Part shown: piece by piece, positions 47,355-60,561 of the stretch
Layout: each line of letters opens with the position of its first letter
Numbering within the stretch: the stretch's first letter is position 1
Assembly (NCBI GenBank): GCA_036381515.1
Contig: DASVCR010000078.1
Location: 14,371-78,370 of the forward strand
DNA: 64,000 nucleotides
DNA from: Gammaproteobacteria bacterium
GTDB lineage: Bacteria; Pseudomonadota; Gammaproteobacteria; Steroidobacterales; Rariloculaceae
Reading direction: 5' to 3'
Position numbers and translations under genes: made by a program
The notes under the pieces: model-generated
Seen by the model: the letters and a program-made list of their open reading frames with translations, nothing else
The model's database searches: none
Told to the model about the DNA's origin: nothing

Positions 47355-49382
47355 TCAACGTGCGCCGAGCGGCGGCGTAGGGTCCTCGGCGGCCCGCTCG
47401 CCGAGCGCGAAGACCTCGAGGGGCACCTGGATGCGCGGCGGCTCGACCTCGGTCGAAGCGTCGTCCTCGACGTCATCCCCGGTCGCATCGCCGTCGGCGC
47501 CGTCCGGGGGCGCGTCGTCGTCGGCGCCGTCCGGGGGCGCGTCGTCGTCGGCACCGCCCCCGGTCGCGGACCGCACGACGGCCCGCGCGAGCTCGATGCG
47601 CGTGTCCGCGACGCCCCGCTCAGTCAGCGCATCGGCGATCGCGAGCGCGCGATATCGGCCGAGACGCGCGATGCCGCTCTCCGGGATGGCCTCGTTCTCA
47701 ACGAGCGCGTCGAAGAGCGCGCGGTAGTAAGCGTCGCGCTCGGCCTCGACGACGCGGCCGTCCGGTCCGCGCGTGAAGTACGACGCGATCGTCTCCCGCC
47801 GCTCGGCACCCAGGCGCTCGCCGACGAACTCCTCGAGCAGATCCTGATGACGGGGCGACGCGAAATCGACGGGCTGCGGCTCCGTGACGAGCGTCGGCCC
47901 GGCCGTCTCGAGCGTAACGTGCAGCTCGATCTGCCGCGCGGCGAGCGCGTCCCGATCGACGACGCGATCCGCGACGCCCTGGACGCGCACGCCGATCCTC
48001 GGCCGCGCGGCGAGCGCCTCGGCCCATGCGTCGAGCGTCTCGAGCTCGACGGGCTCGGCCTCGCCGGGCGGGAACGACACCGGCGCAAGCGTCGCCGCAT
48101 CGACGCTGGCCGCGGCGGCGAGCACGTCGAGCGGCGCCGAAGCGACCGCGTCGAGCTGCTCGACGACGCTCGAGGCCAGCACGCGGCCGATACCGGTGCC
48201 GTCGTTCGGAGCGGAGAAGACGTAGGCCGTCTCGACGACGCCGCGCGGATCCTCGAGGAGCGCGAGCGCGAGCTCGATGCTCGGGCCGCCGGGATCCGTC
48301 GCGGCCTGCTCGATCGCGAGCCCTCGCGCGCTGAAGCGAACGTCGCCTTCGATGCCGCCAGCGGCGACGCGATACTCGATCCGCGCATCGATCGCCTCGG
48401 CGTCTAGCGCAGAGCCCGCGAGCCGCAGCGACGGACGGAGCAGATCGAGCTCCGCGGCGAGCCGCCACTTGCCGTCGAGCAGCTCGGCGTCGCCGGCAGC
48501 CTCGAGGCTCGCGGCCGACAGCGCATCGCCGTCCGCCGATCCGAGCTCGGCACGAAGCACCCTGAGCGTCGCCGCGCCGAGCCGCAGCGTCCGCTCGCGG
48601 CCGCGCCACTCGAAGTCGGCCGCGCCGCTCGACACTCCGGCGACCGACGGCGATCCGGGGAACCGCGCGGCGATCGGCGCGACGTCGACGTTCTCGAACA
48701 GCATGCGGCCGTCCGCGGCGAGGGTGCCGACGTCGATCTCTCCGGAAAGCCGCAGCACGCCGCCGACCGCGTTCCGCGCGTCGATCTCGACGCGTGCGCG
48801 CGTCGCCGCCGGGCGAGCGACGTCGAACGCGCGCACCGACACGCCGTCGACGACGAGCGGCTCGCCCGCGTCGTCGTGCCATTCGATGCGGCCGCCGTCG
48901 ATCGTTGCGTGCGCAATCTCGAACGGCGCCGCGGGCGCGAACGCGTCCCAGCCGGCGTCAGCCGGTCGAGCCTCTGCGCCGAGCGTCACGCGCGGCGCGT
49001 CGACGTCGAGCAGGTCGAGGACGAACCCGCCGCCGAGCAGCGCGGCGACGTCGAAATCGAGCGCGATTCGGCGCGTCTCCACCGAGACCCCGGGCGCATC
49101 GAGCGCCGAGTCGTGCAGCGTGACCGTCAATGTGAACGGGTTCACGGCGACGCGCCCCACGGCGACACGCCTGCCCGGAGCCGCCGCGGCCCACTCGTCG
49201 AGGACCGCGCCGACCGCGAGCGGCACGACGACGTAGGTCCCGAGCGCAAACGCGACCGCGAGGACCACGACGCCTGAAGCCACGAGCTGCGCGCGGCGGC
49301 TTCGACGCAAGCGCCGGCCGATGCGCCGCCCTCTGACGTACAGACGGGACGCGGGCGTGCCTCTCTGCAAAGCTCCGGTCAT
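47355..49382 (-). CDS. DUF748-like (AsmA-related) membrane-anchored protein with acidic repeat tail
   Basis: N-terminal TM. Repeated F.L..L.V..P...L / I..G.I...D segments typical of DUF748. C-terminus contains DDDAPPDGA x2. Confidence 0.65.
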   Translation of the reverse strand: MTGALQRGTPASRLYVRGRRIGRRLRRSRRAQLVASGVVVLAVAFALGTYVVVPLAVGAVLDEWAAAAPGRRVAVGRVAVNPFTLTVTLHDSALDAPGVSVETRRIALDFDVAALLGGGFVLDLLDVDAPRVTLGAEARPADAGWDAFAPAAPFEIAHATIDGGRIEWHDDAGEPLVVDGVSVRAFDVARPAATRARVEIDARNAVGGVLRLSGEIDVGTLAADGRMLFENVDVAPIAARFPGSPSVAGVSSGAADFEWRGRERTLRLGAATLRVLRAELGSADGDALSAASLEAAGDAELLDGKWRLAAELDLLRPSLRLAGSALDAEAIDARIEYRVAAGGIEGDVRFSARGLAIEQAATDPGGPSIELALALLEDPRGVVETAYVFSAPNDGTGIGRVLASSVVEQLDAVASAPLDVLAAAASVDAATLAPVSFPPGEAEPVELETLDAWAEALAARPRIGVRVQGVADRVVDRDALAARQIELHVTLETAGPTLVTEPQPVDFASPRHQDLLEEFVGERLGAERRETIASYFTRGPDGRVVEAERDAYYRALFDALVENEAIPESGIARLGRYRALAIADALTERGVADTRIELARAVVRSATGGGADDDAPPDGADDDAPPDGADGDATGDDVEDDASTEVEPPRIQVPLEVFALGERAAEDPTPPLGAR
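47494..47547 (-). repeat. Perfect 2 x 27-nt tandem duplication inside the DUF748 gene
   Basis: tcggcgccgtccgggggcgcgtcgtcg occurs at 47494-47520 and again at 47521-47547, with a degenerate third copy following. Confidence 0.95.
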
Positions 49383-49523: not shown

Positions 49524-50054
49524 ATGCGGAGTGAGCCCATGAGCCGTCCAATCGTCGCGGCGGCCGTGGTCGCTGCCACGGTCGTCCTCGTCGCCGTCCT
49601 GTATTACGTGTTCTCTCCGACGACGACGGTTTCCCCGGACGGGCGCCGCATCACCGATGCGGATCGCGGCGAGCAGGCGCGCGAGACCATCGCCGAGCTG
49701 CGCGAGGAGAGCGAAGCCGGCCGCCCGGATCTCGACGAGGCGTTCGCACGGGCCGAGGCGCACCGCGAGGCGGGCGAGCTCGCGGACGCGCAGCTCCTCT
49801 ATTTCTTCGCGGCCCGGAACGGCCATGCTCAGGCGGCGTTCCGCCTCGCGACGTCGTACGACCCGCTGCATCACGATCCGGAGACGAGCCTGCTCGACGA
49901 GCCGGACCCGTTCCAGGCCTTCAAGTACTACATGCAGGCCCTCGAAGGCGGCGTCACGGAGGCGCAGGCCCGGCTCGACGCGCTGCACGCGTGGGCCGAG
50001 CGTGAAGCCCCTTCGAACCCGGAAGCCGAGCGTCTTCTGTTGCAGTGGAATTGA
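49524..50054 (+). CDS. Membrane-anchored Sel1-like repeat protein
   Basis: N-terminal TM IVAAAVVAATVVLVAVLYYVF. Two Sel1-type repeats (AQLLYFFAARNGHAQAAFRLATSYDP; FQAFKYYMQALEGGVTEAQARL). Alternative ATG at 49539. Confidence 0.7.
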   Translation: MRSEPMSRPIVAAAVVAATVVLVAVLYYVFSPTTTVSPDGRRITDADRGEQARETIAELREESEAGRPDLDEAFARAEAHREAGELADAQLLYFFAARNGHAQAAFRLATSYDPLHHDPETSLLDEPDPFQAFKYYMQALEGGVTEAQARLDALHAWAEREAPSNPEAERLLLQWN

Positions 50055-50056
50055 CG

Positions 50057-52009
50057 ATGATGCGCGCGATCACATTCGGTAACGCGATGCGGCTCCTGCT
50101 CGTCGCCGTTGCTGCGTTCGCCGTCACGGCGCACGCGCAGCAGAACCGTCCGCTGACCGTCGAGGGCAAGCGAACGCTTTATCAACGCGTGATCGCGGTG
50201 CCCGGCGCGCTGCTGCTCGATGCGCCCGGCGCGTCCCGCGCGTTCGCGCAGCCGGTCACGCCGTTCACCGTGTTCTACGTCTACGACCGGCAGACGCACG
50301 AGGGCCGCAACTACGTGCAGGTCGGCATCGACAGCGCGGGCGAGATCGACGGCTGGCTGCCGGCCGAGCAGGCGATCGACTGGCAGCAGACGCTGACCGT
50401 CGGCTTCAGGGACCCCGCGCAGCACCCGCGCGTGCTGCTCTTCAACGACCGCGACGCGCTGCGCGAGATCATCGACACGAACGACGCGGCGCGCTACGAG
50501 ACGCTCCGCGAGCAGGCGATCGCGGGCGACGTGCGCGACTCGCCCGTCGCCGCGATCCAGCCGGACGGGTTCATCGACATCCGCCGCAACTTCTATCTCG
50601 TGCCGATCCTGAGCCACGAGGACGTGCTGATCGGCGACTACCAGGGCCGGCTGCTGCACGTCGCGAGCGTGCCGCTGCGCGATCCGGCCCCGGAGGAGGA
50701 TCCGTACCGCGCGGGCATCGTCTTCGTGATCGACACGACGCAGTCGATGCGTCCGTACATCGACAGGACGCGCGAGATCATGCGCGACGTCTACGCGCAG
50801 ATCGAGGAAGCGGGGCTCGCGGACAAGGTCGCGTACGGGCTCGTCGGCTTTCGCGACAGCACGAAGGCCGTGCCCGCGCTCGGCTACGAGGCCCGCGTGT
50901 TCGCCGACCTGACCAGCAGCGGCGAAGAGTTCCTCACGCAGGTCGCCGACGTCGATGCCTCCGACGTCTCGAGCCAGGGCTTCGACGAGGACGCGTACGC
51001 CGGTGTAGTCGAAGCTTTAGAATCAATTAATTGGGGAAATTTTTTTGCGCGTTACATCATCCTCATCACCGACGCGGGTCCGCGCCTCGCCGACGATCCG
51101 CTGTCGTCCACGGGCCTCGATACCGCCGAGCTCGCCGCGCACCTCCGCGACCGCGGCATCGCGCTCTGGGCGATCCACCTGAAGACGGAGGTCGGCCGCG
51201 ACGATCATGCGTTCGCGGAGCGCGAGTACCGCGCGCTGTCGACCGTGCCCGACATCGGCTCGTTCTACTATCCGATCGAGGCGGGGAACGTCGACGATTT
51301 CGGCGAGGCGCTGTCCGCGATGATGCGCCAGCTCACGGCGCAGGTCGCCGCGGCGGCTCAAGGGTTTCAGCCGCTGCAGGGCCAGCCGACGATCGAGATC
51401 GCGGAGGACGACAGCGAGCTCTCCGCGTTCCAGCAGAAGGTCGCGCGGCTCGGGTATGCGCTCCGCATGGATTACCTGCAGCAGGCCGGCGACGACGGCC
51501 GCGTGCCCGCGCTGTTCGATGCGTGGATGATCGACCGCGACTTCTCGAATCCCGCCGAGCTTGCGATCGACGTGCGCGTGCTCCTGACGCGCGACCAGCT
51601 CTCCGATCTGCACGACGTGCTGCGGCGCGTCGTCGAGCGCGCCGAGGAAGGCGCGATCGCGCCGCAGGGGTTCCTCGACGAGCTGCGCAGCCTCGCCGCG
51701 ATCATCAGCCGAGACCCCGAGGCCGTCGAGGCGGCGGCCGCCGCCGGGGACGGCGTGAGCCTCGCGGAGCTCGGCTACATGCGCGAGTACATCGAGGGCC
51801 TGCCGTACCAGAGCGAGGTGATGCACATCGACCTGTCAGACTGGCAGCAGTGGTCCGCGCAGCAGCAGTTCGAGTTCATCAACCGGCTCGACGGCAAGGT
51901 CGCCTACTATCGCGCGCTGCACGACAACGTCGATCTGTGGGTGTCGCTCGACGGCGGCCCCATCGACGGCGATTCCGTCTATCCGTTGCCGCTGGAGGCC
52001 CTGCCCTGA
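50057..52009 (+). CDS. Secreted von Willebrand factor A (vWA) domain protein
   Basis: Signal peptide ..AVTAHA. MIDAS-type strand IVFVIDTTQSM and downstream YIILITDAG. About 230-aa N-domain and about 250-aa C-domain are unassigned. Confidence 0.8.
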   Translation: MMRAITFGNAMRLLLVAVAAFAVTAHAQQNRPLTVEGKRTLYQRVIAVPGALLLDAPGASRAFAQPVTPFTVFYVYDRQTHEGRNYVQVGIDSAGEIDGWLPAEQAIDWQQTLTVGFRDPAQHPRVLLFNDRDALREIIDTNDAARYETLREQAIAGDVRDSPVAAIQPDGFIDIRRNFYLVPILSHEDVLIGDYQGRLLHVASVPLRDPAPEEDPYRAGIVFVIDTTQSMRPYIDRTREIMRDVYAQIEEAGLADKVAYGLVGFRDSTKAVPALGYEARVFADLTSSGEEFLTQVADVDASDVSSQGFDEDAYAGVVEALESINWGNFFARYIILITDAGPRLADDPLSSTGLDTAELAAHLRDRGIALWAIHLKTEVGRDDHAFAEREYRALSTVPDIGSFYYPIEAGNVDDFGEALSAMMRQLTAQVAAAAQGFQPLQGQPTIEIAEDDSELSAFQQKVARLGYALRMDYLQQAGDDGRVPALFDAWMIDRDFSNPAELAIDVRVLLTRDQLSDLHDVLRRVVERAEEGAIAPQGFLDELRSLAAIISRDPEAVEAAAAAGDGVSLAELGYMREYIEGLPYQSEVMHIDLSDWQQWSAQQQFEFINRLDGKVAYYRALHDNVDLWVSLDGGPIDGDSVYPLPLEALP

Positions 52010-52752
52010 CCGTCGACGCCGTCTTCGCGCTTCGGGACGTCACGAAAACGTACAGCGCCGGAGGCGTCGAGTTTCGCCTCCGCGTGCCGCGACTCGACGT
52101 GCCGCGCGGCGCGAAGATCGCGCTGATCGGCGAGAGCGGCTCGGGCAAGAGCACGCTGCTCGAGCTGCTCGCGATGATCCTGAAGCCGACGAGCGCGGGC
52201 AGCTTCCGGTTCACGCCGACCGCCGGCGAGCCGCTCGACGTCGACGCGGCCTGGCGCAGGGGCGATTCCGACGGCATGAGCCGCTGGCGGAGCCGTTACA
52301 TCGGCTACGTGCTGCAGCACGGCGGGCTCCTGCCGTATCTCAGCGTGCGCCGCAACATCGAGCTGCCGCGGCGGCTCCTCGATCTCCCGGTCGGCGACGT
52401 CGCGGACGACCTCGCGGCGCGGCTCGGCATCCGCCAGCAGCTCGACAAGCTGCCCGCGGCGCTGTCCGTCGGGCAGCGCCAGCGCGCGGCGATCGCGCGC
52501 GCGCTCGCACACGAGCCGCCGGTCGTGATCGCGGACGAGCCGACGGCCGCGATCGATCCGCTGAACGCCGAGCGGATCACAGCGCTCCTCGCGAAGCTCG
52601 CGGACGAGCTCGACGTCACGCTGATCGTCGCGAGCCACGCGCAGGAGCTCGTGCGAAGCGCCGGCTTCACGCTGATCGCGCACGAGATCGATGCGGCGGA
52701 CGAGGAGTCGATGACGGTCAGCGTGTGCTCCGCCGAGCCGATGGCCGCGTGA
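51937..52752 (+). CDS. ABC transporter ATP-binding protein (MacB/LolD-like)
   Basis: Walker A GESGSGKST, signature LSVGQRQR, Walker B VVIADEPTAAID. Start uncertain: the homologous N-terminus begins about 52006 (LTVDAVFALRDVTKTY), where only CTG is available. The nearest canonical in-frame start is GTG 51937, overlapping the vWA gene. Confidence 0.8.
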   Translation: MGVARRRPHRRRFRLSVAAGGPALTVDAVFALRDVTKTYSAGGVEFRLRVPRLDVPRGAKIALIGESGSGKSTLLELLAMILKPTSAGSFRFTPTAGEPLDVDAAWRRGDSDGMSRWRSRYIGYVLQHGGLLPYLSVRRNIELPRRLLDLPVGDVADDLAARLGIRQQLDKLPAALSVGQRQRAAIARALAHEPPVVIADEPTAAIDPLNAERITALLAKLADELDVTLIVASHAQELVRSAGFTLIAHEIDAADEESMTVSVCSAEPMAA

Positions 52753-52753
52753 C

Positions 52754-53983
52754 ATGCCGATGGGATCGCCGAACGGCAGGATGCGGCTCGTCGGCCGCCT
52801 CGCGCTCGACGACTATCGTCACGAGTGGGTGCTGTCCGGGTGCTCCGTGCTCGCGCTCGCGGCCGTGCTGATCCCGCTGCTCGTCCTGTTCGGGCTGCGC
52901 TACGGCATCATCACGAACCTGCTCGATCCGCTGATCGAGAACCCGCGCTATCGCGAGGTCACGCCGGTCACGAGCGGCCGCTTCACGCCGGAATGGTTCG
53001 AGACGATGCGCGCGCGCGACGACGTCGAGTTCGTCGTGCCGAGGACGCGCTCGCTCGCCGCGACGATCCGGCTGCGCGTGCCCGACAGCGAGGTCGGCCG
53101 GATCGTCGACGTCGAGCTGATCCCGTCCGGTCCCGGCGACCCGGTGCTCACGGAGGAGCTCGAGCCGCCCAAAGGCTACGGCCAGGTGCTCTTGTCGACG
53201 AGCGTCGCGGAGCGTCTCGGCGCGGCCGCAGGCACGCGCGTCGAAGGCATCGTCACGCGTACGCGGCAGGGCGAGGTCGAGACGAAGCTTTTGCCGCTCG
53301 ACGTCGCCGGCGTCGCACCGCCGGCGGCGTTCGGCCGGGACGGCATGTTCGTCTCGAGCGAGCTGCTCGTCGCGATCGAGGACTTCCTCGACGGACGCGC
53401 GGTGCCCCCGCTCGACTGGGAAGGCAGCGAGCCCCGGTCCGCGGACCGCGCGTTCGCGGGCTTTCGGATGTACGCGCGCGAGCTCGACGACGTCGCGACG
53501 CTGCGCGCCGAGCTCCTCGCGCAGAACGTCGACGTGCGGACGAGCATCGCGGACATCTCGCTCGTGCAGACGCTCGACCGCAATCTCGGCATCGTCTACT
53601 GGATCATCGCGACGATGGCGATCGTCGGCTACTGCCTGTCGTTCGCGACGAGCGTCTGGGCGAACGTCGACCGCAAGCGGCGCGAGTTCAGCGTGCTGCG
53701 CCTCACCGGCTTTCGCACGCGCGACATCGTCTGGTTCCCGATCCTGCAGGCCGCGTTCACGGCCGTGCTCGCGTGGCTCGTCGCGTGCGTCGCGTACTTC
53801 GTCGTGCAGGGCATCCTGAACGGGCTCTTCGCCGACAGCATCGGCGGGGGCGAGCCGGTCTGCCGGATCCGCGCGTGGCACCTCGCGCTCGCGCTGCTCC
53901 TCACGCTCGCCGCGTCGTCCGTCGCGGCCGCGGCCGGCGGGCGGCGCGTCGCGCAGCTCGAGCCGTCGCTCGGGCTGCGCTGA
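52754..53983 (+). CDS. FtsX-family ABC permease with large periplasmic domain (type VII / MacB-like)
   Basis: TM1, about 220-aa periplasmic insert, then three TM helices with RKRREFSVLRLTGFRTRDIV. ATG lies 1 nt after the ATPase stop. Confidence 0.8.
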   Translation: MPMGSPNGRMRLVGRLALDDYRHEWVLSGCSVLALAAVLIPLLVLFGLRYGIITNLLDPLIENPRYREVTPVTSGRFTPEWFETMRARDDVEFVVPRTRSLAATIRLRVPDSEVGRIVDVELIPSGPGDPVLTEELEPPKGYGQVLLSTSVAERLGAAAGTRVEGIVTRTRQGEVETKLLPLDVAGVAPPAAFGRDGMFVSSELLVAIEDFLDGRAVPPLDWEGSEPRSADRAFAGFRMYARELDDVATLRAELLAQNVDVRTSIADISLVQTLDRNLGIVYWIIATMAIVGYCLSFATSVWANVDRKRREFSVLRLTGFRTRDIVWFPILQAAFTAVLAWLVACVAYFVVQGILNGLFADSIGGGEPVCRIRAWHLALALLLTLAASSVAAAAGGRRVAQLEPSLGLR

Positions 53984-57187: not shown

Positions 57188-57958
57188 ATGCCCGAGCCGA
57201 AGCGCCGCGCGGCGCAGCGCCGAGCCCCGTTCCGCGCAGGCCGCGGCGCCCGCCTCGCCCGCGTCGCGGCCCTGGCCGCCGCGCTGTGCGCGCCCGCGGC
57301 CCCGCTCATGGCGCAGGTGCTCGAGCCCGTCGTCAGCGGGTACGTCACGGTCGCGAGCGACTATCGCCATCGGGGCTTGAGCGAAAGCAGCGGCGAGCCG
57401 TCGATCCAGTTCGGCGCGGACTATCAGCACGCGAGCGGCTTCTTCGCGGGCGCATGGGCGGCGCGCATCGACTACGCGCACCCCGCGCACGAGTCGTCGA
57501 CGCGCTTCAAGGTCGGCTACTACGTCGGCGTCAGCAAGCGCATCGCCCGCTGGTCGTGGACGGCGACCGCCGTCCGCTACACGTATCCCGGCCTCGCGTA
57601 CGACTACGACTACAACGAGCTGTCCGCGACGGCGGGCTTCAGGGATCGCGTGTTCGTCACCGCGGCGTACATCGACGACTTCTTCGCGCGCGACGCGTCC
57701 GCGTTCTACAGCGAGATCGGCACCGCGCTGCCGCTGCCGCACGGCCTCGAGCTCGGCGCCACGCTCGGGCGCGTCACGTCGTCCGCGTCACAGCTCGAGT
57801 ACACGCACTGGAACGTCGGGCTGTCGAAAACGTTCGCGCGGCGGCTCGGCATCGACGTGCGCTACCACGACGGCAGCCGCTACGTGTCGAACGCGATCGC
57901 GACGACGGACGCCGACGCCTGGGTCGTCAGCGCGTCCTACGGCTTCCGCTCGCGCTGA
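57188..57958 (+). CDS. TorF-family putative outer-membrane porin
   Basis: GYVTVASDYRHRGLSESSGEPSIQFGADY..GFFAGAW pattern; terminal aromatic-rich strand SASYGF. Confidence 0.7.
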   Translation: MPEPKRRAAQRRAPFRAGRGARLARVAALAAALCAPAAPLMAQVLEPVVSGYVTVASDYRHRGLSESSGEPSIQFGADYQHASGFFAGAWAARIDYAHPAHESSTRFKVGYYVGVSKRIARWSWTATAVRYTYPGLAYDYDYNELSATAGFRDRVFVTAAYIDDFFARDASAFYSEIGTALPLPHGLELGATLGRVTSSASQLEYTHWNVGLSKTFARRLGIDVRYHDGSRYVSNAIATTDADAWVVSASYGFRSR

Positions 57959-59220
57959 AGCGCGGCCGCGACCGGGACGCCGCACACGTGCACGTCCGCG
58001 AGCGCCTCGACCGCGTAGCACGCGTTCACCGTCATCCCGTCTGCGAGCCGGACGACCGATTGCCGCAACAGCTCCGCGACGCGCGGCGTCTCGATGCCGG
58101 GTGAGCGCTCGCGCAGCAGCGCGACGATGCCGCTCAAATGAGCCGCGGCGAGGCTCGTGCCGGAGAAGATCGCGTAGCCGCCGCCGGGCGTCGTCGTCAG
58201 GATCTCGTCCGCCGGGGCCGGCAGCCCGAAGGGCCGGTCGAGGGCGGCGGCTTCGCTCGGCGGATGCGCGACGAGCACGCCGGGCACCGACGCCGGGAAC
58301 TCCGCCTCGTCGGAGGCGTCGGGCGGCGCCGCCGCGACGACGACCGCGCCGCGTGCGACGGCCTCGGCGACGAGGCGCTCGAGCAGCGGATCGGCCGGCC
58401 CCCCGAGGCTCAGATTGATCACGTCCGCGCCGACGTCGATCGCGATCTCGAGCGCCTGAGCGAGCGTGAAGCTCGAGCAGAGCGCGTGTGCGGGCGCCGC
58501 GGGCGCGGCCCAGCACGCGCGCAGCGCGACGATCTCGACGTCCGGTGCGATGCCGAAAATCCCCTGCCGGTTATTCGCGGCCGATGCGATCACGCCGGCG
58601 ACCGCGGTGCCGTGCACCTCGGCGGCCGAGCGGCGCAAGCGCGGGTCGACGACGTCCCGCGAGAAGCCGATGCGGCCCTCGAGCTCCGGGTGCTTCGCGT
58701 CGACGCCCGAGTCGATCACGGCGACCTGCACCCCTTTGCCGGTCGCGAGCGTGTGCGCCTCCTCGACGCCGAGCTCGCGCGCAGCCGGCAGCAAGTCCGC
58801 GTACGGGTCGTCGTAGCGGCTGCCGAGCGTCCGGAACTGATGCATCGGCTGTGCGAGATCGACGCGCGGATCCGCGCTGAGCCTCTCGAGGACCTCGTCG
58901 AGGTCGCGATCCTCCGGCACGACGAAGACCTCGCAGTAGACCTCGAGCGACCGGATCGGCCATCCGTCCTTGCGGCGGATACCGTGCTCCTTCGCGAGCT
59001 GATCCAGGAGGCGATCGACGTCGGGCGGCGGCGCGCCGTAGCCGCGCCTGCGCAGATAGCGCGAGTCGAGCGGCCCCGTCAGGCCGATCCCGCTGCTCTC
59101 GGGCTGCGCGACCGTCAACAGCACCTCGCGCTCGAGCGCCCCGCTCGACGCGACGGGCACGTCGACCGTCGCGCAGCCGGCCGCGACGAGCAGAGCGACG
59201 GCGGCGAGCACGCGCATCAT
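57937..59220 (-). CDS. S8 (subtilisin-family) serine peptidase lipoprotein with I9-like propeptide
   Basis: Lipobox LLVAAGC. Catalytic triad contexts VAVIDSGVD, HGTAVAGVIAS, GTSLAAAHLSG. The ATGA overlap with the anti-sigma stop was verified. Confidence 0.85.
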   Translation of the reverse strand: MMRVLAAVALLVAAGCATVDVPVASSGALEREVLLTVAQPESSGIGLTGPLDSRYLRRRGYGAPPPDVDRLLDQLAKEHGIRRKDGWPIRSLEVYCEVFVVPEDRDLDEVLERLSADPRVDLAQPMHQFRTLGSRYDDPYADLLPAARELGVEEAHTLATGKGVQVAVIDSGVDAKHPELEGRIGFSRDVVDPRLRRSAAEVHGTAVAGVIASAANNRQGIFGIAPDVEIVALRACWAAPAAPAHALCSSFTLAQALEIAIDVGADVINLSLGGPADPLLERLVAEAVARGAVVVAAAPPDASDEAEFPASVPGVLVAHPPSEAAALDRPFGLPAPADEILTTTPGGGYAIFSGTSLAAAHLSGIVALLRERSPGIETPRVAELLRQSVVRLADGMTVNACYAVEALADVHVCGVPVAAALQRERKP

Positions 59221-59855
59221 CGCTCGGCTTCCCGATTCGCCGGCGCCGCGGCCGCCGGCGTCGCGAACGTTTGCCCGGCGAAGCGAATGCGCGGATCGTC
59301 GAGCAGCCGGCGCACGACCGTGCCCGCGTCCGCGGACGCCGGAAGCCGCAGCGTGTAGCGGCCGAGGTTCCTGCTCGGCCCCGCGACGATCTCGGCATCG
59401 AGCTCGTCGAGCAGCGCGCGCATCTCCGCCTCGCGGACGCCGTCGGCGAAGATCACGTCGATGAGCTCGCCGCTGCCTGCGGCGTCCGACAGCGTCCGGT
59501 ACGTCGCGCCGCCGTCGGGTTCGGTGCCGACGAGCCCTGCCGCGAGCGGCAGGCCGACCGCGATGACGACGGCGGCCGCGAGGGCCCAGAGCGTCCGTCG
59601 CGACGTGCCGGGCGGCGATGCCCGGTCGAGACGGCTCCGCAGCCGCTCGAAATTCGCATCCGGCGCGAGCGGCACGACGGGCTGACGCCGCACGAGCGCT
59701 GCGACCCGCGTCTGCTCCGCGAGCTCGGCCCGGCAGGCCAGGCACTGCCTGACGTGCCGCTCGACGCGCTCGCGCTCGTCGCCGGCGAGCGTGCCGTTCA
59801 CGAGCCACGGCAGGAGCGCGGCGGCGAGCTCGTGATCCGATACGTGGCGCGTCAT
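59217..59855 (-). CDS. Anti-sigma factor (zf-HC2 type, single TM, periplasmic C-domain)
   Basis: H..RQCLACRAEL zinc motif, TM WALAAAVVIAVGLPLAAGLV. Overlaps the sigma gene stop. Confidence 0.8.
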   Translation of the reverse strand: MTRHVSDHELAAALLPWLVNGTLAGDERERVERHVRQCLACRAELAEQTRVAALVRRQPVVPLAPDANFERLRSRLDRASPPGTSRRTLWALAAAVVIAVGLPLAAGLVGTEPDGGATYRTLSDAAGSGELIDVIFADGVREAEMRALLDELDAEIVAGPSRNLGRYTLRLPASADAGTVVRRLLDDPRIRFAGQTFATPAAAAPANREAER

Positions 59856-60466
59856 TTGAGCTCGTCCCTGCCGAGCCTCGGCAACAGCGCCCGGAGCTTT
59901 CCGCGCGCGTGGAACATCCGCGTCTTCACCGTGTTCACCGGACAGTTCACGATGCTCGCGATCTCCTCGTACGAGCAGCCGAAGTAGTACGTCAGCTCGA
60001 CGACCGCGCGCTGCTCGGCCGGCAGCACGCGCAGCGCCTGCTCGAGCAGATCCTCGAGCTCGGCCCGCTCCGTGAGTTCCGCGCCGCGCTCCGTGCGTTC
60101 AATCGACGCATCGAAATCGGCGGCCGCGAACCGGCTGTACCAGCGCCGCGCGCGCTGCGCGAGCTTCATCGCCTTGCGGTATGCGATGCCCATGATCCAC
60201 GTCGCGACGCGCGAGCGCGCCTCGAACGCGCCCGCGTCCCGCCACACGACGAGCATCACGTCGTTGACCGTCTCCTCGGCGAGATCGAGTCGGCCGGTGA
60301 GACGGTACGTGAAGCGCAACAGCGGCTGGTAGTACTTGCGGTAGAGCTCCTGCAGCGCATCGCGGTCGCCGCCGCGGACGCGCGCGAGGAGCGCCGTGTC
60401 CACAGCGTCGTCGTCCGACGCGGAGATCGGATTCGCTGACGAATGCGTTTGCCGGTCGATGGTCAT
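59852..60466 (-). CDS. ECF (sigma-70 family group 4) RNA polymerase sigma factor
   Basis: Region 2: LYRKYYQPLLRFTYRLTG..AEETVNDVMLVVW. Region 4: SYEEIASIVNCPVNTVKTRMFHARGKL. ATG 60466. Confidence 0.9.
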   Translation of the reverse strand: MTIDRQTHSSANPISASDDDAVDTALLARVRGGDRDALQELYRKYYQPLLRFTYRLTGRLDLAEETVNDVMLVVWRDAGAFEARSRVATWIMGIAYRKAMKLAQRARRWYSRFAAADFDASIERTERGAELTERAELEDLLEQALRVLPAEQRAVVELTYYFGCSYEEIASIVNCPVNTVKTRMFHARGKLRALLPRLGRDELK

Positions 60467-60531
60467 CTCTGGCCGACGCCGATCGAGGAGCGGTCGCTCA
60501 AGTCTACGGCCGCGCCGTCCGTCCCGCCATT

Positions 60532-60561
60532 GAACCTTGCGGTTAAGCGCCGGCACTCAAG
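60532..60561 (+). promoter_or_regulatory. Candidate ECF-type promoter upstream of the haem-lipoprotein gene
   Basis: tGAACCtt (60531-60538) ... TCAAG (60557-60561), resembling GGAACTT-N16-TCAAA, but the spacer is 18 nt. A GGAGG Shine-Dalgarno sits at 60579-60583. Confidence 0.25.

Follow-up and report, generated by a model that had tools for sequence, protein, structure and literature searches.

A kinase-less operon with a Sel1-like anchor, related to the PpkA ectodomain and TagTS, in a gammaproteobacterial genome

The window examined here (the whole 64-kb stretch of contig DASVCR010000078.1, from a gammaproteobacterium of the Rariloculaceae) was found to possess a compact operon of four genes, all encoded on the plus strand, between positions 49524 and 53983. 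The first open reading frame (ORF; 49524..50054) encodes a small bitopic Sel1-like protein of 176 aa. It is followed by the gene for a secreted three-domain von Willebrand factor A (vWA) protein, beginning either at an ATG at 50057 or at a GTG at 50045 and ending at 52009 (650 or 654 aa, respectively), then by an ATP-binding cassette (ABC) ATPase homologous to TagT (52006..52752; 248 aa if a CTG start is used) and finally by a permease of the FtsX/MacB type homologous to TagS (52754..53983; 409 aa), for which PF02687 and the map of transmembrane (TM) segments indicate four TM helices. The stop codon of the small gene lies 2 nt ahead of the vWA ATG at 50057, and 1 nt separates the ATPase gene from the permease gene. 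A first-pass annotation of this DNA had proposed a compact four-gene operon with such spacings, and all four plus-strand ORFs were recovered at these coordinates. On the basis of sequence homology, the operon is a kinase-less, TagQR-less variant of the module composed of the PpkA ectodomain and TagTS, a module which is known but poorly understood and which, in Pseudomonas, senses damage to the envelope and activates type VI secretion.

The relationship to PpkA extends over the whole of the vWA protein. Its residues 30–650 align with residues 378–993 of Pseudomonas lurida PpkA at 35% identity (E 7e-118), and the match runs to the last residue; this and the other homology figures given here come from sequence comparison. 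Judged by this alignment, the protein is a full-length homologue of the periplasmic part of PpkA. It is not itself a PpkA, the T6SS Ser/Thr kinase of KEGG entry K11912, since tests of the window protein for a kinase domain and for a TM helix were negative (no Pfam match to Pkinase and no TM helix). A kinase is present in two of 149 representatives of the vWA family. In members P0136 and P0165 a Pkinase domain stands ahead of the same three-domain module, and these belong to loci arranged as tagF-ppkA-ABC-FtsX-FGE-sulfatase (P0136; FGE, formylglycine-generating enzyme) and fha-tssJ-tssK-tssL-tssM-tagF-pppA-ppkA (P0165). The P0136 order is one which we take to match ppkA-tagT-tagS-tagR of the H1 type VI secretion system (H1-T6SS; PA0070-PA0081).

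The two ABC genes also have their counterparts beside ppkA. At a T6SS locus of the Pseudomonas fluorescens group (L105), where the genes after ppkA were compared, the ATPase shares 44% identity over 218 aa with the gene at the tagT position (E 3e-53) and the permease 44% over 402 aa with that at the tagS position (E 4e-94). A further locus (L003) has genes at these two positions which are 54% and 43% identical to the ATPase and permease, respectively. The assignment to TagT and TagS is one of pairwise identity, and the window pair is not a bona fide T6SS TagTS as it has no T6SS context. TagT and TagS have been described as an inner-membrane ABC-like complex (COG1136/COG4591) that acts, and is required, upstream of PpkA (PMC13584744, PMC7817224, PMC12607579), and the sensor domain of PpkA holds a vWA domain, with TagR binding its C-terminal part (PMC3224232). 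The same three components (PpkA ectodomain, TagT and TagS) make up the core of the TagQRST-PpkA pathway published for Pseudomonas aeruginosa (PMC13584744, PMC7817224, PMC3224232), and a cassette of vWA protein, Lol-like ABC and SUMF1 has been reported next to srfABC (bioRxiv 10.64898/2026.09.18.752743; PMC3608642). It was an overstatement, then, to call the system undescribed, as the first-pass annotation had done, given that its vWA protein is a homologue of the PpkA ectodomain and its ABC pair are homologues of TagT and TagS. No description of a minimal stand-alone Sel1-vWA-ABC-FtsX operon was found in the literature.

A survey of gene neighbourhoods showed that the linkage of the vWA gene to the ABC/FtsX genes is conserved, and well beyond one genome. 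When species-representative genomes were scanned with an alignment of 10 vWA sequences, at least 579 relatives were returned, the best 80 of which are all from Gammaproteobacteria and are 44–91% identical to the window protein. The taxa of these 80 include unclassified metagenome-assembled genomes, Woeseiaceae, Wenzhouxiangellaceae, Chromatiales, Sedimenticolaceae, Thiodiazotropha, Arenicellales and Thiotrichales. Together with locus L001 they make up the related set of 81 loci. Of the 78 in which this could be tested, 76 have the ATPase gene after the vWA gene; the permease gene comes next in 65 of 67, and a Sel1 gene lies ahead of the vWA gene in 77 of 77. The exceptions are L026, with no ABC or FtsX gene within 8 kb downstream, and L073, with an insertion of 3.4 kb; L026 (8001-9929), where the Sel1 and vWA genes are both present, is the only clear break of linkage in the related set. 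A further 80 loci came from a scan of metagenomes in which distant members (~30% identical to the window) served as seeds; an ABC gene adjoins in 70 of 71 of them and FtsX comes after it in 64 of 64. About 55 of these distant loci are of the Pseudomonas T6SS type (tssK-L-M-tagF-pppA-ppkA-ABC-FtsX-FGE) and the remainder are linked to SrfC or are otherwise kinase-linked. The collinear arrangement was observed in more than 130 independent loci at 33–93% identity, and is far beyond chance. In addition, across 137 loci the identity of the vWA protein to that of the window correlates with the corresponding figures for the permease (r = 0.90) and the ATPase (r = 0.83); the vWA protein, ATPase and permease are co-inherited. 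These figures strengthen the suggestion of the first-pass annotation that the vWA protein is the partner of the ABC.

The triad is near-invariant in T6SS clusters, in SrfABC toxin loci and in stand-alone operons. Around the stand-alone operons of the window's clade the flanks vary by lineage although the four genes remain together: DUF748 and glcDEF are found at the 15 nearest loci, leuS-lptE ... holA at another 14. By tblastn, no kinase, PP2C/PppA, Fha/FHA, TssJKLM, TagF, FGE/TagR, TagQ-like or SrfC gene was detected in the 64-kb window or in the 81 related loci. A fifth conserved gene of the operon was considered and dropped, as clustering of the flanking ORFs gave no family present in more than 15 of the 81 loci. 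Other, distant kinase-less members were seen at L087 (4236-8371) and L088 (12125-16954), where the permease gene is followed by a full TagR-like (FGE-sulfatase) and TagQ-like (Gly-zipper_YMGG) pair and by trypsin-like proteases, so that outside T6SS clusters, too, a TagQRST set without the kinase is in effect present.

The vWA protein carries a predicted Sec signal peptide (50057..50137; MMRAITFGNAMRLLLVAVAAFAVTAHA then QQ), in which a hydrophobic segment at residues 8-29 is followed by an A-H-A motif. Cleavage would be expected at AHA/QQ, and the signal peptide has no lipobox cysteine. The AlphaFold2 (AF2) model of the protein (mean predicted local distance difference test score, pLDDT, of 80) has three domains, which in the 654-aa numbering are an N-terminal beta-rich domain, delimited from the AF2 secondary structure and conserved in PpkA (residues 33-212; 50141..50680), the vWA domain, supported by PF00092 and by Foldseek (residues 222-440; 50708..51364), and a C-terminal helical/beta domain taken from the model (residues 458-654; 51416..52006). 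The vWA domain holds a motif, DTTQS, resembling a metal-ion-dependent adhesion site (MIDAS; residues 230-234, 50732-50746). In Pfam the match to VWA is weak (PF00092, residues 225-387, E 3e-5), and when the whole model was submitted to Foldseek the middle domain alone was matched, to integrin beta-I and the vWA domain of SpaC (E 1e-9 to 1e-7). No fold match was obtained by Foldseek for the N- and C-terminal domains, the N-terminal domain has no Pfam match, and a sequence search of the PDB with the family profile gave nothing at E<=1. The picture of a secreted protein with a vWA core between two unassigned domains, already drawn in the first-pass annotation, is therefore retained.

Residues D230, S234 and D343 are conserved across the vWA family, and D316 is likewise conserved. 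The family is a large one: 1337 clusters at 50% identity match at E<=1e-3, and 495 do so at the stricter E<=1e-30. With few exceptions the members are ~650 aa in length and are matched over their full length. An exact database look-up of the window protein found no record. The module ends in ...LP-COOH (52001-52006), and P654 does not vary among 28 diverse members, which include PpkA kinases, so that the extreme C-terminus may be functionally important. Several variants of the module were observed. In P0123 (L084, 667-3792; 1041 aa) it bears an N-terminal AAA_22 ATPase domain and has no adjoining ABC/FtsX genes. In P0146 and P0266 it is preceded by a cytoplasmic CxxC...CxxC zinc-ribbon and then a TM helix. 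P0184 (890 aa) resembles a vWA-ABC fusion, but the joining of periplasmic to cytoplasmic parts is topologically implausible, and an artefact of frameshift or read-through where the two genes overlap is the probable cause. Many kinase-less members of 650 aa (P0005, P0011, P0017 and others) are labelled 'serine/threonine-protein kinase PpkA' by JGI, which looks like a systematic annotation error arising from transfer of KEGG Orthology (KO) terms.

The ATPase matches ABC_tran (PF00005, E 5e-26), and its Walker A motif (GESGSGKST, 52129-52155), signature (LSVGQRQR), Walker B with catalytic Glu (VVIADEPT) and H-loop are all intact. The permease matches FtsX (PF02687) over residues 284-404 (E 5e-12). 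Its hydropathy profile places TM1 at residues 24-57, a periplasmic loop of ~220 aa at residues 58-276 (52925..53581) and TM2-4 at residues 277-396, and the helices of the AF2 model (pLDDT 82) agree. A Foldseek search of the PDB with this model gave LolC/LolE as the best matches (E 6e-18 to 1e-14) along with MacB (1e-14), YtrF, HrtB, BceB and YbbP, FtsX being a weaker match (E 7e-7 to 3e-5). The TM-scores to these folds lie between 0.45 and 0.65, and identity to LolC/E/MacB is 11–18%. As modelled, the permease has a type VII ABC fold, and hydropathy and fold matches alike agree with the first-pass annotation, which had given it the type VII layout of four TM helices and a ~220-aa periplasmic domain. 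The ATPase and the single permease form a LolCDE-like type VII ABC, presumably with the permease as a homodimer. Within the periplasmic domain, residues P64, W81, F93, P96, R99, R169, E209, G214, R232, F237 and R238 were found to be invariant when stand-alone, T6SS-linked and FGE-linked members were compared, and this domain is the presumed contact surface for the vWA protein.

The small protein at the head of the operon has ~8 cytoplasmic residues, a TM helix at residues ~9-30 and a periplasmic part with two Sel1-like repeats and a conserved end, ...LLLQW(N). The window copy falls below the threshold for Pfam Sel1; however, PF08238 (Sel1) is matched by 20 of 30 orthologues, and a profile of the orthologues matches the solved Sel1 proteins 8sxq (E 7.5e-12), 6deh, 6ork and 4bwr. 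The description of this protein as a Sel1-like anchor in the first-pass annotation thus stands. The same domain forms the C-terminus of a 340-aa protein (p340) which precedes the vWA gene in Srf-linked loci, and at L102 and L103 it forms the C-terminus of a 636-aa Pkinase-TM-Sel1 protein. The Sel1 part of the L102 fusion is 43% identical to the window protein (E 1e-10), and the two share the ending ...LLQ(E)W. At L102 (6069-7976), and also at L103 and probably L101, the gene for this fusion lies between srfC and a gene for a secreted 649-aa vWA protein; downstream of the vWA gene in L102 and L103 are ABC, FtsX, FGE-sulfatase and trypsin-like genes. There are accordingly two ways in which a kinase has been joined, either to the vWA module, as in PpkA, or to the Sel1 domain. 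As a kinase may be fused to either of them, the Sel1 and vWA parts constitute a 'Rosetta stone' case, which suggests that the Sel1 domain associates with the vWA protein in the periplasm. No direct Sel1-vWA fusion was detected among the 149 family representatives. The Sel1 protein of the window is reduced to an anchor without a cytoplasmic domain.

The junction between the vWA and ATPase genes has an unusual form. The ATPase frame has no ATG, GTG or TTG start near the vWA stop, and the CTG at 52006, which overlaps the vWA TGA as CTGA (GCC CTG A), is the sole candidate start. The CTGA junction is kept in ten relatives (among them L018, L004, L008, L005, L001, L006, L009, L010 and L014), and an earlier ATPase start is excluded in three relatives by an upstream in-frame stop. 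Either a CTG start or coupling by termination and reinitiation is suggested at this junction, translational coupling being indicated by the overlap of vWA stop and ATPase start. An automatic gene caller was seen to shorten an ATPase orthologue (L168) to 217 aa, with loss of the conserved first beta-strand. A scan for promoters and terminators found nothing, and is uninformative at 70% GC.

The neighbours of the operon (DUF748, glcDEF, 6PGD, zwf and pgl) are housekeeping genes. In accordance with the first-pass annotation, no MacA-like adaptor, outer-membrane protein (OMP) or Lol component adjoins it. The DUF748 gene (47355-49382) is divergent, on the minus strand, 140 bp upstream of the operon, and its orthologue at L001 also matches Pfam YhdP. 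Proteins of the DUF748/YhdP kind belong to the AsmA-like group for envelope lipid transport. The adjacency is probably synteny rather than a functional link, because it is kept only in the nearest 15 of 81 loci. In one subclade (L038, 4290-7232, and 13 similar loci; L059, 12106-13215) the operon is located inside the housekeeping cluster leuS-lptE ... holA, directly after lptE, which encodes an LPS-assembly lipoprotein. The DUF748/YhdP-like and lptE neighbours were both dropped as functional partners, being lineage-specific. Approximately 4 kb downstream of the operon the minus strand encodes an extracytoplasmic function (ECF) sigma factor, a zf-HC2 anti-sigma factor and an S8 peptidase (57937-60556), and no evidence of a link between this cluster and the operon was found.

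From the homologies, architecture and linkage we infer the physical contacts, direction of action and biological role as follows. The Sel1 domain would dock the soluble vWA protein at the inner membrane. Binding and hydrolysis of ATP by the ATPase would move the periplasmic domain of the permease (mechanotransmission), and this domain would engage the vWA protein, either changing its MIDAS-dependent binding state or handing to it a substance derived from the membrane. The output would lie in the periplasm, as surveillance or maintenance of the envelope, and not in phosphorylation; a periplasmic output is probable because no cytoplasmic signalling domain occurs in the operon or within 8 kb in any relative. 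The periplasmic domain of the permease is put forward as the acting part, through which the ABC would act with or on the vWA protein, because it is the only periplasmic component common to all contexts. In general terms, an ATP-driven type VII ABC acting with a periplasmic vWA protein is well supported by inference. It seems to us reasonably probable that the operon is a self-contained envelope module, a homologue of the sensor half of the pathway for threonine phosphorylation in the T6SS, which works in this manner.

Several points weigh against this proposal. The contact between permease and vWA protein is a presumed one, and the accepted order TagQR -> TagTS -> PpkA in P. aeruginosa is genetic and does not show direct contact between TagS and the PpkA ectodomain. 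TagR and TagQ are needed in P. aeruginosa and are absent here, so that the input may be different, and there is no kinase in the operon to define the output. Furthermore, L026 and the AAA_22-fused P0123 (L084) hold the vWA module without an adjoining ABC, and the module can therefore exist without one in its vicinity. A bolder version of the proposal holds that the triad and its Sel1 docking protein are an old autonomous envelope machine, to which kinases, SrfABC toxins and FGE/TagQ were attached later, and that the minimal operon does a direct ATP-powered job in the periplasm (for example, mechanical switching of the MIDAS vWA protein or hand-off of a membrane ligand). This version is tentative, and we lean somewhat against it.

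The alternative which fares best keeps the same partners and replaces pure mechanotransmission by hand-off. The ligand would be hydrophobic (a lipid or lysolipid, a mislocalised lipoprotein, or a molecule linked to lipid); the ABC would pull it from the outer leaflet of the inner membrane and pass it to the soluble vWA protein as acceptor or carrier in the periplasm, by analogy with LolCDE-LolA and YbbAP-TesA. The folds nearest to the permease are indeed those of lipoprotein-bound LolC/LolE (E down to 6e-18), the complex of the LolC periplasmic domain with LolA (6f3z) was also matched, and in NCBIfam the ATPase is matched best by LolD (TIGR02211). At 126 bits, however, the LolD score does not reach its cutoff of 307.75, and the scores in general are far under the LolD/LolC equivalog cutoffs. 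There is precedent in YbbAP-TesA for a soluble partner which receives compounds extracted from the membrane (PMC12646458), the permease of the SrfABC cassette has been termed LolF-like in a preprint (10.64898/2026.09.18.752743), and products of lipid hydrolysis have been proposed as the signal for TagQRST (PMC7817224). On the other hand, vWA/MIDAS domains normally bind acidic protein ligands via a metal ion, not lipids, and the vWA protein has no recognisable hydrophobic-cavity domain, its N- and C-terminal domains being without a fold match. The envelope-lipid neighbours found in different lineages (DUF748/YhdP-like and lptE) would be consistent with extraction, although each is lineage-specific (15/81 and 14/81 loci, respectively). 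Overall, extraction of this kind is considered unlikely.

Another alternative is that the Sel1, vWA and TagTS proteins form a sensor which detects perturbation of the envelope and relays it to an unlinked cytoplasmic partner, such as a Ser/Thr kinase encoded separately, an ECF anti-sigma factor or, on the model of BceAB-BceS, a histidine kinase. All characterised relatives signal, through TagQRST to PpkA (PMC7817224, PMC13584744), and Casabona et al. likened TagTS to ABC transporters which interact with membrane histidine kinases (per PMC3608642). The fusion of kinases to both the vWA module and the Sel1 anchor, and the zinc-ribbon and AAA_22 cytoplasmic extensions of other members, also fit a sensor. 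Against such a relay, the Sel1 anchor extends no more than ~8 residues into the cytoplasm, the vWA protein is soluble, the flanks are housekeeping genes which vary by lineage, and the tblastn searches of the window and the 81 loci detected no kinase, PP2C, FHA, FGE-sulfatase, T6SS or Srf gene. We regard a relay of this type as improbable.

It has also been suggested, in the first-pass annotation, that the vWA protein serves in adhesion or assembly, in which case it would be a surface, biofilm or matrix factor whose deployment is switched by the ABC. Conservation of the MIDAS-like motif and a fold resembling that of integrin I-like domains and pilus-tip adhesins are in its favour, but the match is to the generic vWA fold only and lends the role no specific support. 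The closest relatives are instead periplasmic sensor domains of an inner-membrane kinase; its only export signal is of the Sec type, the vicinity lacks genes for pili, a sortase or an outer-membrane export system, and the Sel1 partner is anchored in the inner membrane. An adhesive role is accordingly very unlikely. Finally, a MacB-type efflux or export pump, with adaptor and outer-membrane channel encoded elsewhere and the vWA and Sel1 genes as mere neighbours, is hardly credible, since MacB structures do occur among the fold matches but the collinear linkage to vWA is near-universal in three unrelated genomic contexts, no membrane fusion protein (MFP) or OMP gene is found nearby in any context, and the vWA and ATPase genes overlap (CTGA).

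The preferred reading, that of a self-contained envelope module with a periplasmic output, bears on the pathway from which its homologues are known. How TagQRST senses damage to the envelope and activates PpkA is an acknowledged question in the field. The PpkA ectodomain and TagTS behave as an inseparable unit, also where kinase, TagQ/TagR or T6SS are missing, and the kinase-less unit was encountered in ~80 of the species-representative gammaproteobacterial genomes examined, the wider family being much larger. The PpkA ectodomain is thus likely to be the direct partner of TagTS, and the operon provides a minimal four-protein system for studying their interaction. The kinase-TM-Sel1 fusions give a testable prediction for the role of the Sel1 protein. 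If the reading as an autonomous machine is true, there would be a further functional class of type VII ABC beside FtsEX-EnvC, LolCDE-LolA, MacAB-TolC and YbbAP-TesA, and TagTS would act directly on the PpkA ectodomain in Pseudomonas. For annotation, the consequence is that many kinase-less proteins are currently mislabelled as 'serine/threonine-protein kinase PpkA'.

Comparison with known systems places the operon at varying distances from each. Membership of the vWA protein in the BatA/BatB or TerY groups, which the first-pass annotation had raised, was not found; these were rejected as 160 related loci contain no MoxR AAA+, DUF58, Ter, PP2C or kinase partners of those kinds. Among the PADLOC defence families, only generic ABC/AAA matches were obtained for the ATPase and none for the Sel1, vWA and FtsX proteins. 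MacAB-TolC was rejected because the ATPase is a separate gene and the neighbourhood has no MFP or OMP gene. YbbAP-TesA (PMC12646458) likewise combines a type VII ABC with a soluble periplasmic protein, and in BceAB-BceS the cycle of a type VII ABC is read out by a kinase, an analogy which has been drawn for TagTS-PpkA. Both are among the fold matches of the permease; they differ in having fused or 10-TM permeases and, as partners, a thioesterase and a histidine kinase, with no vWA or Sel1 protein.

LolCDE-LolA resembles the operon in its type VII ABC fold, with LolC/LolE the best structural match, and in its soluble periplasmic partner. The window has one permease gene in place of LolC and LolE, identity to LolC/E is 13–18%, and the partner is a vWA protein of 650 aa, not LolA. 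An identification as LolCDE was rejected on account of the single permease gene, the LolD score far below its cutoff and the lack of any NCBIfam match to LolC/LolE. In FtsEX-EnvC, and in the PcsB, RipC and CwlO systems, a type VII ABC transports no substrate but passes motion driven by ATP to a partner in the periplasm, and FtsEX-EnvC is the mechanistic template for the working proposed here. The partner in the window is, however, not a coiled-coil hydrolase activator, and FtsX is a weaker fold match. The operon was rejected as an FtsEX, with FtsE scoring 108 bits against a cutoff of 264.85 and FtsX_actino 14.8 against 250.

The two closest systems are those which share the vWA family. In the cassette flanking srfABC, ABC and FtsX come after a vWA protein of this family which is secreted and has no kinase, and the protein preceding it (p340 or the kinase-TM-Sel1 protein) has the same C-terminal Sel1 domain. 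The cassette differs in possessing an FGE-sulfatase, often a Gly-zipper (TagQ-like) lipoprotein, trypsin-like proteases and srfB/srfC, none of which occur here, and in that the Sel1 protein of the window is reduced to a TM helix and Sel1 repeats. From the pathway of the Pseudomonas H1-T6SS that comprises TagQRST, PpkA, Fha1 and PppA the operon is set apart by a vWA protein without kinase domain or TM helix, by the absence of TagR, TagQ, PppA, Fha and T6SS genes from the window and from within 8 kb in the 81 relatives, by its housekeeping context and by its Sel1 anchor gene, which the T6SS loci lack. What the two have in common is a vWA protein corresponding to the whole PpkA ectodomain, an ATPase and permease which are each 44% identical to their counterparts, and the same gene order of ectodomain, ABC and FtsX, as found in the ~55 T6SS loci.

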